Below, one piece after another: positions 657 to 1,739 of a stretch of DNA of 64,000 nt (its first letter is position 1; each line of letters starts with the position of its first letter). A model generated the notes under the pieces. The model was given only the letters and a program-made list of their open reading frames with translations. It was not told the DNA's origin and searched no databases. This DNA is from an uncultured bacterium (GTDB lineage Bacteria; Muiribacteriota; Ozemobacteria; Ozemobacterales; Ozemobacteraceae): the NCBI GenBank assembly GCA_964580875.1, contig CAZOMG010000017.1, forward strand, positions 1 through 64,000, written 5' to 3'. Made by a program: the position numbers and the translations under genes.

Positions 657-1739
657 TTAAGGCTTTTTCTTCAGTTCGCAGATCGGGCACTTGTTCGCGT
701 CTGGCATGCAGGACGGGCAGATGTGATCGTGAAAAATACACTGGGAAAAGGTGTTAACCACTGTGGCGAGGTCGAAGGCTTTTTTGCAAATCGGGCATTG
801 AAAGGTCTTATTGCTTTTTCCGATGTTTTCGCGGCGATGAGACCAGCGCCAGATCGTATTCAAGGCATGTTCTGCTTTTTCCTGAAGAAGGCCGGAGGCG
901 GCCATGCATGGTTTGCATATCCTGTGTTCACGGTCTGATGATCTGCCGAAAATGCCGCCGGCACATGCAGAGCAGGTTGGTCGGCCGCACCATAAGCAGT
1001 GCCAGTAAGCATTTCCACGTTCCCCCTGTGCGACCTGATACGACCCGGAAAAGAAAGTTTTGTTGCAGATATGGCATGGCCCTCGCAGGCGCTGCGGATC
1101 AGCCCCATGTTTCAGCAGCATGTCTATCATCGTCGGGTTGTTTCTTTTATGCGCGGCCAGCAGTGGGCAATCGCCATCTATTCCCATGGCGTTCGGGTTT
1201 GCGCCGCCTTCGAGCAAGGCTCTGGCGAGTTTTACGTTTCCCCAATACACCGTCAGTGTGAGCGGTGTGGAAAAGTTTTCCTGTGACAGGTGTTCTGTCG
1301 AAACCCCATTTTTGATGAGAAAATCGACAAGATCAGGGTTTTTGCCCTGGATAGCCTTTCTAATCAGGTAACCTTCGCCTTCATAGGTGGTTTCGGCAAG
1401 CGTGGCTCCGTGTTTCAACAAGAGTTGCAGCCCCTCAAGATTACCGTTTTCGCAGCAGATGATGACGGCGGTGTGCCCCTTGCTGTTTCTTGCATCTGGC
1501 TTCACACCCTTTTCAAGGAGCAGGCGGATAAGATTGTTGTTATTGCCCTTCGCAGCGTAGATAAGTGAATCGCTGCCATTTTTCGCAACGCGAAAGATAT
1601 TGGCACCATTCTTGAAGATGCCCATCGCAACTTCTTCGTTTCCATGCTGCAATGCTTCGAAAAATTCAGAAACGCCCACACAATCAACCATTTCTCCATC
1701 AATCAGACGTTTAACTCCACATTTGAGCATTCTTATCAT
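657..1739 (-). CDS. eukaryote-like ankyrin-repeat protein with C-terminal FYVE-like and C3HC4 RING-type zinc fingers
   Basis: Several ~33-aa ankyrin repeats in the N-terminal two-thirds, including the motif 'TPLTLTVYWGNVKLARALLEGGANPN'. A C-terminal cysteine cluster has the pattern W-H-C-x2-C-G-x3-C-x2-C...H-R-I-C-x2-C. This is followed by C-P-I-C-x16-C-x2-H-x3-C-x2-C-x7-C-P-I-C, which has RING C3HC4 spacing. RBS GGAGAG lies 6 nt upstream of the ATG at 1737-1739. Confidence 0.7.
   Translation of the reverse strand: MIRMLKCGVKRLIDGEMVDCVGVSEFFEALQHGNEEVAMGIFKNGANIFRVAKNGSDSLIYAAKGNNNNLIRLLLEKGVKPDARNSKGHTAVIICCENGNLEGLQLLLKHGATLAETTYEGEGYLIRKAIQGKNPDLVDFLIKNGVSTEHLSQENFSTPLTLTVYWGNVKLARALLEGGANPNAMGIDGDCPLLAAHKRNNPTMIDMLLKHGADPQRLRGPCHICNKTFFSGSYQVAQGERGNAYWHCLWCGRPTCSACAGGIFGRSSDREHRICKPCMAASGLLQEKAEHALNTIWRWSHRRENIGKSNKTFQCPICKKAFDLATVVNTFSQCIFHDHICPSCMPDANKCPICELKKKP

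Follow-up and report, generated by a model that had tools for sequence, protein, structure and literature searches.

What does a bacterial protein do that joins ankyrin repeats to two cysteine-rich clusters of eukaryotic appearance, and is such a protein native to the genome in which it is found? These questions are raised by an open reading frame near the start of the window, the whole 64,000-nucleotide stretch of DNA analysed here. A preliminary description, made from the letters alone, had seen in it an E3-ligase-like architecture of ankyrin repeats, a FYVE-like finger and a C3HC4 RING finger. Our analysis confirms the ankyrin repeats and the order and spacing of the two cysteine clusters, and favours a non-catalytic adaptor inherited within a single bacterial lineage.

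Results

A complete and conserved gene

The gene and the parts of its product are as follows, in positions of the window and all on the minus strand.

1746..1751 (-): Shine-Dalgarno-like GGAGAG, 6 nt 5' of the ATG, read from the sequence
1739-1737 (-): ATG start codon
657..1739 (-): complete open reading frame of the ankyrin and zinc-finger protein, 360 amino acids plus stop codon (657-659), from the ORF listing
1674..1739 (-): N-terminal segment MIRMLKCGVKRLIDGE..., residues 1-22, of basic, hydrophobic and amphipathic character, without a signal peptide
1098..1673 (-): ankyrin-repeat domain, residues ~23-214, six helix-pair repeats, from Pfam and AF2
906..1076 (-): putative zinc-finger module 1 (residues 222-278), with FYVE-type cross-brace spacing of its eight Cys, all of them invariant
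798..905 (-): basic helical linker, residues 279-314, conserved, with the invariant pattern T-I-x-x-W-x-H-x-R-E-N-I-G-K
678..797 (-): putative zinc-finger module 2, residues 315-354, RING-like C3HC4 with the short IAP/MDM2-type spacing, found by regular expression

The ORF call, the Shine-Dalgarno and recurrence in three metagenome assemblies establish 657-1739 as a genuine, conserved gene. The identical protein was called on three independent metagenome contigs, the start Met is shared in eight full-length orthologue clusters, and the open reading frame and both quoted Cys/His motifs lie where the preliminary description had placed them. The N-terminal segment is modelled by AF2 at low confidence, is kept as MIRLIKSGIKRLLG in the orthologue alignment, and may form an amphipathic helix. 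No signal peptide or transmembrane segment was found in the 360-residue protein, where the maximum 19-residue Kyte-Doolittle mean is 1.05, in agreement with the earlier remark that no secretion signal is present. With neither element and with 15 Cys in its tail, the protein is well supported as a predicted cytoplasmic one.

Ankyrin repeats and selection

The ankyrin repeats, already recognised by eye, score far above the curated gathering thresholds of Pfam (Ank_2, 91.6 bits against 27.3, E 4.9e-26; Ank, 72.1 against 21.1, E 2e-20; Ank_4, 69.0 against 22.7, E 3.2e-19), and AF2 places six helix pairs at residues 23-44, 55-76, 91-109, 123-143, 169-177 and 192-210. Between the window protein and P0001 there are 12 amino-acid differences, every one inside the repeats, and because of this positive selection on the ankyrin surface was first suspected; it is ruled out by a dN/dS of 0.28 in the repeats. 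The two genes differ at 29 nucleotides, all within one stretch (nt 154-648) resembling a recombination tract. Conservation is even among the domains (72-77%), length is uniform, and the two closest strains give a dN/dS of ~0.25; the whole protein is under purifying selection.

Module 1 and a possible FYVE-type fold

Module 1 has the arrangement C222-x2-C225-x22-C248-x2-C251-G-x3-C256-x2-C259-x15-C275-x2-C278, which includes the 'WHC..CG' and 'HRIC..C' elements, and residues 222-278 match the FYVE consensus C-x2-C-x(9-39)-C-x2-C-x4-C-x2-C-x(n)-C-x2-C with a variable insertion of ~10 residues in loop 1. FYVE (PF01363) is the top Pfam match for this module in 8/8 orthologues and in both paralogues, yet it stays below the cutoff of 27.8, with 18.9 bits when the full protein is searched and 21.4 when the module is searched on its own. 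As a lead only, an hhalign comparison with hand-assembled reference alignments gave the module 78% probability for FYVE over the full domain and 6% for RING. In the fold search the Hrs FYVE domain aligns with it over 41 residues (1.4 Å, 37% identity), and the best structural neighbours are protein-binding FYVE-type fingers. The FYVE-like label thus stands on spacing and structural neighbours but falls short in the formal profile search. Structure lends support to a predicted FYVE-type fold for finger 1, of the kind found in rabphilin, RIM and Slp, which does not bind lipid.

The PI3P-binding signature is absent from module 1, which has neither R(R/K)HHCR around C3 nor an N-terminal WxxD, and no Trp lies N-terminal to C1. 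Around C3 the window protein has A-Y-W-H-C-L and the orthologues V-D-W-H-C-S, with the His changed to Tyr in P0007. PI3P binding by this module is excluded as far as sequence can show. A B-box reading was also tried and rejected; TRIM63/54 matched at E 0.056 over only ~21-31 residues, and a B-box was matched in 2/8 members.

Module 2 and the RING pattern

Module 2 reads C315-P-I-C318-x15-C334-IF-H337-D-H339-I-C341-PS-C344-x6-C351-P-I-C354, a spacing of C-x2-C-x15-C-x2-H-x3-C-x2-C-x6-C-x2-C, and residues 315-354 match the RING consensus C-x2-C-x(9-39)-C-x(1-3)-H-x(2-3)-C-x2-C-x(4-48)-C-x2-C. With the full-length protein, zero Pfam RING models were found at E≤1. Searched alone, the module gave 14.6 bits against a cutoff of 27 for zf-C3HC4_3, the best RING model (E 0.03, and E 0.0035 in the best orthologue), 14.8 against 29.3 for Sina_RING and 11.6 against 27.3 for zf-RING_2; Prok-RING_4 (PF14447) gave 12.8 against 27, at profile positions 32-42 of 46 in the window protein. 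Sub-threshold matches to these four models recur in 8/8 orthologues, and in every one zf-C3HC4_3 ranks first among the RING models. The hhalign comparison with hand-assembled reference alignments, again only a lead, gave 79% probability for RING over the full domain and 3% for FYVE.

The top PDB profile matches of module 2 are C2H2 proteins, a reading that was rejected: they cover only a knuckle of 12-20 residues, their scores are totals over tandem fingers, and the C2H2 pair of His residues is missing. Over its full length the module is matched best in the PDB by the RNF126 RING (E 0.0034), with the cIAP and RCHY1 RINGs ranking lower, and the fold searches returned no match to a solved RING. 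The earlier C3HC4 RING claim agrees with the spacing and the invariant ligands, but not with the profile search, where the best model reached 14.6 bits against 27.

In the cross-brace topology of RING fingers, site 1 is formed by C1, C2, C5 and C6, and site 2 by C3, H4, C7 and C8. Module 2 of paralogue P0121 keeps C1, C2, C5 and C6 and has lost C3, C7 and C8, and this loss indirectly supports a cross-brace; paralogue P0122 has Cys at the H4 position and shows no RING signal. The ligand patterns of the two paralogues give indirect support to the prediction that module 2 is cross-braced. The RING reading as such is weakly supported, and it would draw on the spacing, the consistent sub-threshold matches and the ligand loss in one paralogue.

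RING E3s contact E2s through a hydrophobic residue at C1+2 and Pro at C7+1. Among the orthologues C1+2 is hydrophobic (I/V/L) and the Pro at C7+1 invariant, so a catalytic-adaptor (E3) role is conceivable. The usual RING 'linchpin' after C8 is a basic residue; at this position the window protein has E, six orthologues K and one S.

The tail as one predicted unit

Nine sequences of 62-97% identity share all 15 Cys, together with H223, H272, H337 and H339, without change, and the 16 predicted ligands, namely the 15 tail Cys with H337 as the sixteenth, are likewise invariant in the eight orthologues. When the tail was shuffled 20,000 times with its composition preserved, the RING expression occurred 15 times, the FYVE spacing three times and both in order 0 times; the C3HC4 spacing of finger 2 is far beyond chance. 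The earlier picture of two Cys-rich modules C-terminal to the ankyrin domain, FYVE-like and then C3HC4 RING-like in spacing, is upheld, with zinc binding as a prediction.

Single-sequence AF2 of the whole protein gave the tail a pLDDT below 50, and the alignment-based tail model predicts helices at tail positions 62-86 (pLDDT 86-91) with a whole-tail pTM of 0.73. From this pTM the tail is predicted to fold as one unit, with a high-confidence linker. Invariant columns of the linker are T295, I296, W299, H301 and R303-K308. Its net charge is +2 to +4 in every orthologue, and +6 to +9 when finger 2 is included, unlike the ankyrin domain, which is acidic or neutral. Such basic character would also suit binding to nucleic acid or to an anionic membrane.

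Distribution and composition

An exhaustive HMMER search of 1.84 billion representatives returned only three related clusters, all with ankyrin repeats, and detected no eukaryotic homologue of the tail; the BFVD viral fold search gave no significant or coherent match. Among 185,579 species genomes the family occurs at eight loci, of which five are labelled Candidatus Riflebacteria/Ozemobacteraceae and three lie in MAGs with orthologues of 68-69%. Members include the Riflebacteria MAGs Sandtown and the MM_PC isolates, besides the window's own metagenome samples. That the family is confined to the uncultured phylum Riflebacteria (Ozemobacteraceae) is well supported.

The gene has a GC content of 0.501 (0.520±0.026 for the window's 50 ORFs), a GC3 of 0.562 (0.590±0.054) and a codon-usage distance of 0.79 (0.86±0.20), each within 1 SD. 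Its composition matches the window, which is good evidence that the gene is native to the chromosome. Composition and distribution had been proposed as a check for acquisition, and they show a native, lineage-restricted gene. The first 2 kb of the window has a GC content of 0.47-0.48, slightly below that of the next few kb.

Genomic context

The preliminary description had drawn attention to a vault gene about 2 kb away and to an otherwise typical bacterial context. Both are as it said: an MVP-like gene (MVP_shoulder, 1.4e-29) begins at 3773, 2,034 nt off, and the rest of the window is an ordinary bacterial chromosome. The 'small neighbourhood of eukaryote-type proteins' that it made of the two genes is not supported. 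MVP adjacency is retained in just one close relative genome (L014); at four further species-level loci, each with 8 kb or more of flanking sequence to one side of the gene or to both, the MVP neighbour is missing. A functional connection with the vault-protein gene lacks support and should be dropped.

No partner gene is conserved across the orthologue loci, where the context is variable and mostly housekeeping, with no defence island. Genes for E1, E2, Ubl or JAB proteins were found neither in the 64-kb window nor adjoining any orthologue, and the window holds no T3SS, T4SS or T6SS genes. Membership of an anti-phage defence system was considered and rejected, since PADLOC returned only the PDC-M72A and 'Ankyrin' models, and only over the ankyrin repeats. 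Several large ankyrin proteins are encoded at Riflebacteria loci.

Discussion

Function of the protein

As a default inference from the domain types, we give about even odds to the reading that this stand-alone, lineage-restricted protein acts inside the cell as a non-catalytic adaptor between proteins. It consists of the short basic N-terminal segment, six ankyrin repeats and a compact basic C-terminal unit, in which two binuclear cross-brace (treble-clef) fingers, joined by the conserved helical linker, are predicted to coordinate four zinc ions. The ankyrin groove would hold one partner inside the bacterium, and the rigid double-finger tail would dock onto, or dimerise with, a second. A client might in this way be recruited or sequestered, with no reaction catalysed by the protein itself.

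Ubiquitin-type E3 activity, suggested by the E3-ligase-like architecture that was first proposed, is possible, but it is unsupported and no observation calls for it. A genuine RING-type E3 or adaptor of an endogenous bacterial Ubl pathway, in which the ankyrin repeats would select the substrate and finger 2 would recruit an E2~Ubl encoded elsewhere, seems to us unlikely. It could draw on the IAP-like C3HC4 spacing with its C6-[AM]-P-x3-K-C-P-I-C ending, on the E2-contact residues (I/V/L at C1+2, invariant Pro at C7+1), on RING model matches that are sub-threshold but present in 8/8 orthologues, and on the RNF126, cIAP and RCHY1 RINGs being the sole full-length PDB matches of module 2; bacterial E1/E2/Ubl operons do exist (PMC10557695, PMC11601596). 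However, E1, E2, Ubl and JAB are absent from window and orthologue flanks alike, the linchpin position varies (E, K in six, S), P0121 is without one whole zinc site, module 2 of P0122 is without a RING signal, and no solved RING appears among the fold matches. It is also improbable, in our estimate, that the tail, perhaps helped by the amphipathic N-terminus, anchors the ankyrin domain on DNA or RNA or at the inner membrane, as a nucleic-acid or anionic-membrane module analogous to FYVE recruitment without PI3P. Linker and finger 2 are basic in all orthologues against an acidic or neutral ankyrin domain, both fingers open with a C2H2-like knuckle (K-x-F-x-C-x2-C-x-K-x-F) that attracts local C2H2 matches, and invariant F229, F230 and Y234 would occupy the place of the FYVE membrane-insertion loop, although the C2H2 likeness spans only 13-15 knuckle residues without the His pair, profile searches matched zero DNA-binding families, and the best structural neighbours are FYVE-type fingers that bind protein.

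An origin or a target outside the bacterium is harder still to reconcile with the data. Architectures of ankyrin with RING or with FYVE are typical of eukaryotes and of effectors, and the preliminary description accordingly regarded this one as normally eukaryotic or belonging to host-associated bacteria, a view that finds no support in a Riflebacteria-only distribution, native composition, purifying selection and the lack of nearby secretion genes. It is very unlikely that the protein is secreted to act in a protist host or predator by mimicking a eukaryotic Ank-FYVE-RING ligase: Legionella Dot/Icm Ank effectors are the best NCBIfam matches, and several large ankyrin proteins do accompany Riflebacteria loci, but these matches come through the repeats only and reach at most 54 bits against cutoffs of 500-1400. 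Nor does the protein carry a signal peptide, the window T3SS, T4SS or T6SS genes, or module 1 the motifs for PI3P binding on which a mimic directed to endosomes would depend; uniform length, purifying selection over the whole protein, strict ligand conservation and the lack of a eukaryotic tail homologue in the exhaustive search speak against it as well. Two further origins, a recent horizontal transfer from a eukaryote or giant virus and contamination of the assembly with eukaryotic DNA, are effectively refuted. The eukaryotic look of the domain types and the slightly low GC (0.47-0.48) of the window's first 2 kb might have suggested them, but in GC, GC3 and codon usage the gene departs by less than 1 SD from the 50 ORFs of the window, it has a bacterial Shine-Dalgarno and no introns, several MAGs carry it among bacterial genes (on contigs as long as 305 kb), and the tail has no eukaryotic or viral relative in sequence or fold.

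Significance

FYVE-type fingers and eukaryote-like C3HC4 RINGs are usually put down to eukaryotic invention or to mimicry by effectors. In this case the two finger types are fused to ankyrin repeats in a vertically inherited protein under purifying selection, in a free-living candidate phylum. Should the fingers fold as predicted, they would enlarge the known repertoire of prokaryotic binuclear treble-clef domains and would offer a tractable module of 146 residues with which to study the role of such fingers in a cell that has no PI3P and, apparently, no ubiquitin. We hold it distinctly unlikely that an endogenous, non-transferred FYVE-type and IAP-like C3HC4 RING module of Riflebacteria is a true E3 or membrane-recruited adaptor working with a bacterial Ubl/E2 system encoded elsewhere; if it were, eukaryotic CARP/MIB-type ligases would have a counterpart in a free-living bacterium and the FYVE fold a prokaryotic representative, which would bear on the origin of 'eukaryotic' cross-brace fingers. 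If it is merely an adaptor, the protein would be another lineage-specific repeat protein.

Comparison with known systems

Eukaryotic analogues in architecture are RNF34/RFFL (CARP1/2), with a FYVE-like finger and a RING, MIB1/2 and plant XBAT, with ankyrin repeats and a RING, and ANKFY1/Rabankyrin-5, with ankyrin repeats and FYVE. In the CARPs a FYVE-like finger of the non-PI3P kind is followed by a C-terminal IAP-type RING, the same order as here. We know of no CARP, MIB, XBAT or ANKFY1 protein that joins all three modules in a compact 360-residue form, and the exhaustive search gave no sequence homology to these analogues, all of which are eukaryotic. Finger by finger, module 1 shares with canonical FYVE domains (EEA1, Hrs, Vps27p; PF01363) the Cys spacing, the Gly after C4 and [RK]-[IV]-C before C7, but it is without WxxD and R(R/K)HHCR and carries the insertion of ~10 residues in loop 1. 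The Rab-effector fingers of rabphilin-3A, RIM2, Slp4 and melanophilin (FYVE_2, RIM2a_ZnF) are eukaryotic and flanked by Rab-binding helices, whereas finger 1 is bacterial and is preceded by ankyrin repeats and followed by a RING-like finger, with sequence similarity under every curated threshold. Module 2 has in common with the IAP/MDM2-type RINGs (zf-C3HC4_3; cIAP1/2, XIAP, MIB, RFFL) the C3HC4 order, H-x3-C, a six-residue loop between C6 and C7 and the final C-P-I-C knuckle, and cIAP RINGs are among its weak PDB matches; it differs in having C3-x2-H rather than C-x-H, a predicted helix in loop 1, and neither a conserved linchpin nor a dimerisation tail.

On the bacterial side, the Ank effectors of Legionella and Coxiella (NCBIfam T4SS_Ank*) have ankyrin repeats in common with our protein and are its best NCBIfam matches, T4SS_AnkH and others reaching at best 54 bits against a cutoff of 600, in the repeats only; unlike them, it has no secretion context and its organism is not host-associated. 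Prokaryotic RING fingers have already been described (Pfam Prok-RING_1/2/4; Burroughs, Iyer & Aravind 2011, as cited in PMC4506424 and PMC4678705), and there is precedent for RING-like cross-brace fingers in free-living bacteria (PMC4506424, PMC4678705, PMC11354881). The accessible literature on these fingers makes no mention of one fused to both ankyrin repeats and a FYVE-type finger. Prokaryotic RINGs have the ligand order C4HC3 and a long last insertion (PMC11354881), whereas module 2, with C3HC4 and a short last loop, stands nearer to the eukaryotic pattern.

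A conserved ankyrin protein with two cysteine-rich fingers

The Ank-ZnF gene encodes a cytoplasmic, conserved protein in which a six-repeat ankyrin domain is joined to a compact basic tail (residues 215-360) carrying two invariant eight-ligand clusters, module 1 and module 2. It is a real gene, and gene calls on three independent metagenome contigs (ENA ERZ27257449, JGI 3300025867, Logan SRR4236661) give the identical protein. Sources call it simply "ankyrin repeat domain-containing protein".

657-1739, minus strand: Ank-ZnF ORF, 360 aa (ORF listing)
6 nt upstream of the Ank-ZnF ATG, minus strand: GGAGAG Shine-Dalgarno-like site (read from the sequence)
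Module 1, Cys pattern: C222-x2-C225-x22-C248-x2-C251-G-x3-C256-x2-C259-x15-C275-x2-C278
Module 2, Cys/His pattern: C315-x2-C318-x15-C334-x2-H337-x3-C341-x2-C344-x6-C351-x2-C354

The preliminary description was right about both Cys/His clusters, which are present as it quoted them, and about the absence of a secretion signal: hydropathy gave no signal-peptide- or transmembrane-compatible hydrophobic stretch anywhere in the protein. The 15 cysteines of the tail together with H337 make 16 candidate ligands, sufficient for four zinc ions. When the tail was shuffled 20,000 times with its composition preserved, the RING expression arose 15 times, the FYVE spacing three times and both in order never.

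The proposed ankyrin repeats passed formal domain search, with Pfam profiles above their cutoffs (Ank_2 4.9e-26, Ank 2e-20, Ank_4 3.2e-19). For the fingers, which had been described as FYVE-like and RING, the spacing and weak, consistent matches agree while the curated thresholds are not reached. FYVE scored 18.9 bits on the whole protein and 21.4 bits on module 1 alone against a cutoff of 27.8, yet of all families it ranked first for module 1 throughout the eight orthologues (best E 1.1e-4) and the two distant paralogues. No RING model appeared at E≤1 with the full protein as query. Scanned alone, module 2 gave 14.6 bits with zf-C3HC4_3 (cutoff 27; near-full-length, profile 4-44 of 49), near-full-length sub-threshold matches to Sina_RING and zf-RING_2, and a partial sub-threshold match to Prok-RING_4 (profile 32-42 of 46); these four families match module 2 in 8/8 orthologues, always below threshold. 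Among solved structures, the full-domain sequence matches of module 2 were RING fingers only, namely RNF126 (E 0.0034), then RCHY1 and cIAP1/2. A C2H2 reading scored nominally better but covered only the K-x-F-x-C-P-x-C-x-K-x-F knuckle, with tandem fingers summed, and was rejected. Local profile-profile comparison with hhalign used hand-typed reference alignments and is thus a lead rather than a test: module 1 matched FYVE over its whole length at 78% (all eight cysteines, loop 1 carrying 10 inserted residues) but not RING (6%), and module 2 matched RING over its whole length at 79% but not FYVE (3%).

Single-sequence AF2 modelled the ankyrin part alone; a tail model from a 10-sequence alignment reached a mean pLDDT of 77.9 and a pTM of 0.73, with the linker (residues 279-314) and module 2 at 86-93 and values below 50 only in the variable loop 1 of module 1. 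Foldseek returned EEA1, RUFY, Hrs, RIM2 and Vps27p, all non-significant (E ≥ 0.14). Module 1 probably has a FYVE-type fold, and one without the lipid pocket: the module lacks the PI3P signature (WxxD, R(R/K)HHCR). Fold searches with the tail model recovered no solved RING E3 domain for module 2; the sole match titled RING domain is the FYVE-type finger of Slp4 (2csz), which aligned to module 1. From its ligand pattern we infer that module 2 may adopt a RING fold.

Family and sequence evolution

Homologue search yielded full-length orthologues in eight clusters (62-97% identity, 337-360 aa), well clear of the generic ankyrin background. All 15 cysteines are invariant across their alignment, as are H223, H272, H337 and H339, the aromatics F229, F230, Y234, W246 and W250, and a linker stretch, R303-K308 (RENIGK), preceded by an invariant H301; per-region conservation is even along the protein (72-77%). 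When the tail was searched exhaustively with HMMER against 1.84 billion cluster representatives, just three related clusters emerged, all ankyrin proteins: the orthologues and the paralogues P0121 and P0122. The other two matches at E≤0.001, a repetitive surface protein and a C2H2 array, are chance. Word-indexed search with the tail or its alignment returned no matches though the same database holds the eight orthologue clusters found with the full-length query, and its negatives for short Cys-rich queries are untrustworthy. In module 2 of P0121 the first, second, fifth and sixth cysteines are kept and the third, seventh and eighth lost, which would remove one complete zinc site from a cross-brace and cripple both sites in a sequential topology. 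P0122 has a cysteine at the histidine position, a standard variation in the RING/FYVE class.

Eight Ank-ZnF loci occur among 185,579 species-representative genomes, five titled Candidatus Riflebacteria or Ozemobacteraceae and three being MAGs with 68-69% orthologues. One MAG, JAHISQ01, has two copies, P0007 and, on a separate contig (L019), P0008. At the P0007 locus two more ankyrin proteins, both large at 588 and 560 aa, lie within 10 kb (L007 7174-8940 and 17930-19612), a hint of an expanded ankyrin repertoire in Riflebacteria.

Against a 97%-identical strain (P0001, L021) dN/dS is 0.25, and all 29 nucleotide differences are confined to a single 495-nt block of the ankyrin region (gene nt 154-648, window 1092-1586), with identical sequence for 153 nt before and 435 nt after. 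This suggests a mosaic gene carrying a recombination or gene-conversion tract; positive selection on the ankyrin region was rejected on the single block and the dN/dS. In a close relative (L014), protein identity is 91% for CorA, 90% for MVP, 73% for SlyX and 68% for Ank-ZnF, whose nucleotide identity is 74% versus 84% in the flank; the gene is thus clearly changing faster than the housekeeping genes beside it, its ligands invariant nonetheless.

Genomic setting and the vault gene

The window is ordinary bacterial chromosome, with genes for EamA, SlyX, CorA, a major vault protein (MVP)-like protein, a dipeptide-epimerase-like protein, NlpC/P60, ABC transporters and two-component proteins, and with putative polyamine-synthesis and lysine-fermentation genes.

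3773-6298, plus strand: MVP-like gene (MVP_shoulder 1.4e-29, Vault_3 5.9e-7)

Its start codon is uncertain because the ORF listing (841 aa from a TTG) and the metagenome gene calls (823 aa) differ. Bacterial MVP homologues are already described from Myxococcales, Cytophagales and Cyanobacteria, Riflebacteria being unmentioned there (bioRxiv 10.1101/872010). The preliminary description saw a small eukaryote-type neighbourhood here, which conservation does not bear out. MVP is absent within 8 kb of the Ank-ZnF gene at two orthologous loci (L015, L016), and its adjacency is not conserved at the P0003 locus (neighbours a toxin-antitoxin pair, OTCase and UvrD-type helicases) or the P0007 locus (CBS, TPR, a secretin-like gene, other ankyrin genes). 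Only in L014 is MVP-CorA-SlyX retained, some 5.3 kb away from the Ank gene with different genes between; EamA is replaced there by other genes, among them a 972-aa ORF. MVP proximity is inherited local synteny, with no indication of a functional neighbourhood.

Several other features were seen. The convergent neighbour of Ank-ZnF (window 2-490, plus strand) is an ORF, at least 162 aa long, without a family match; its GC is low (0.46), and no other ORF in the window has codon usage as atypical (distance 1.29). All three contigs with the identical Ank gene (L001, L002, L003) end inside this ORF, and it is absent at every orthologous locus; a variable or mobile region may lie here, or a break in the assembly. 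In the gap separating EamA from Ank, a GC-rich hairpin of 9 pairs (1801-1824) is terminator-like on the plus strand, antisense to both; an A-run precedes it on the coding strand, so it may be a bidirectional terminator or insulator. At 52619-59703 (plus strand), co-oriented genes for a class-III aminotransferase, a beta-keto acid cleavage enzyme (BKACE), CoA-transferase subunits A and B, a zinc-type dehydrogenase and lysine-2,3-aminomutase look like a lysine-fermentation pathway, compatible with an anaerobic fermenter. Two adjacent DUF4178 proteins precede a 513-aa spermidine-synthase-domain protein and AdoMet decarboxylase (37348-41789, plus strand), together a possible polyamine module that includes uncharacterised partners.

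Proposed role and alternatives

We give about even chances to a tail that binds four zinc ions in two cross-braces within a protein acting as an adaptor. The ankyrin groove would hold one partner, and the double finger would hold a second or dimerise. An endogenous RING-type E3 is an unlikely reading: module 2 has IAP-like spacing, with a hydrophobic residue two positions after its first ligand and a proline directly after its seventh both conserved, but the residue after the eighth varies (E/K/S), module 2 is eroded in the paralogues, no RING fold match was obtained, and E1, E2, Ubl and JAB genes are absent from the 64-kb window. Nucleic-acid or anionic-membrane binding by the tail, to which the consistently basic linker and second finger (+6 to +9 combined) would be suited, we likewise regard as improbable.

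The window also holds no T3SS, T4SS or T6SS genes, and a secreted effector seems more doubtful still; E3 activity, effector function and a link to the vault gene all go unsupported. Least probable is recent eukaryotic or viral acquisition, or contamination. The composition test suggested for acquisition gave no pointer to such transfer: its GC (0.501), GC3 (0.562) and codon-usage distance (0.79) each differ by less than one SD from the values of the 50 ORFs in the window, and the gene looks native. A viral fold library searched with the tail model gave no significant or coherent matches. What lasts of the preliminary description is its observation (ORF, clusters, ankyrin repeats), while its interpretation holds in part.

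Comparison with known systems

The adaptor candidate resembles several known proteins in part. By fold, module 1 is closest to the FYVE-type fingers of Rab effectors; by pattern, module 2 is closest to IAP/MDM2-type RINGs. In architecture the nearest are probably CARP1/2 (FYVE-like plus RING), MIB and XBAT (ankyrin plus RING) and ANKFY1 (ankyrin plus FYVE). RING-class fingers have precedent in free-living prokaryotes (Burroughs et al. 2011, as cited in PMC4506424, PMC4678705 and PMC11354881; Pfam Prok-RING families). PMC11354881 describes prokaryotic RINGs as C4HC3 in order with a long last insertion, whereas module 2 has the eukaryote-like C3HC4 order. Our literature search found nothing linking Riflebacteria with ankyrin proteins. 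Ank-ZnF joins known domain classes in a lineage-specific fusion, its finger membership below curated thresholds, and is a tidy, conserved, undescribed architecture within an uncultured phylum.
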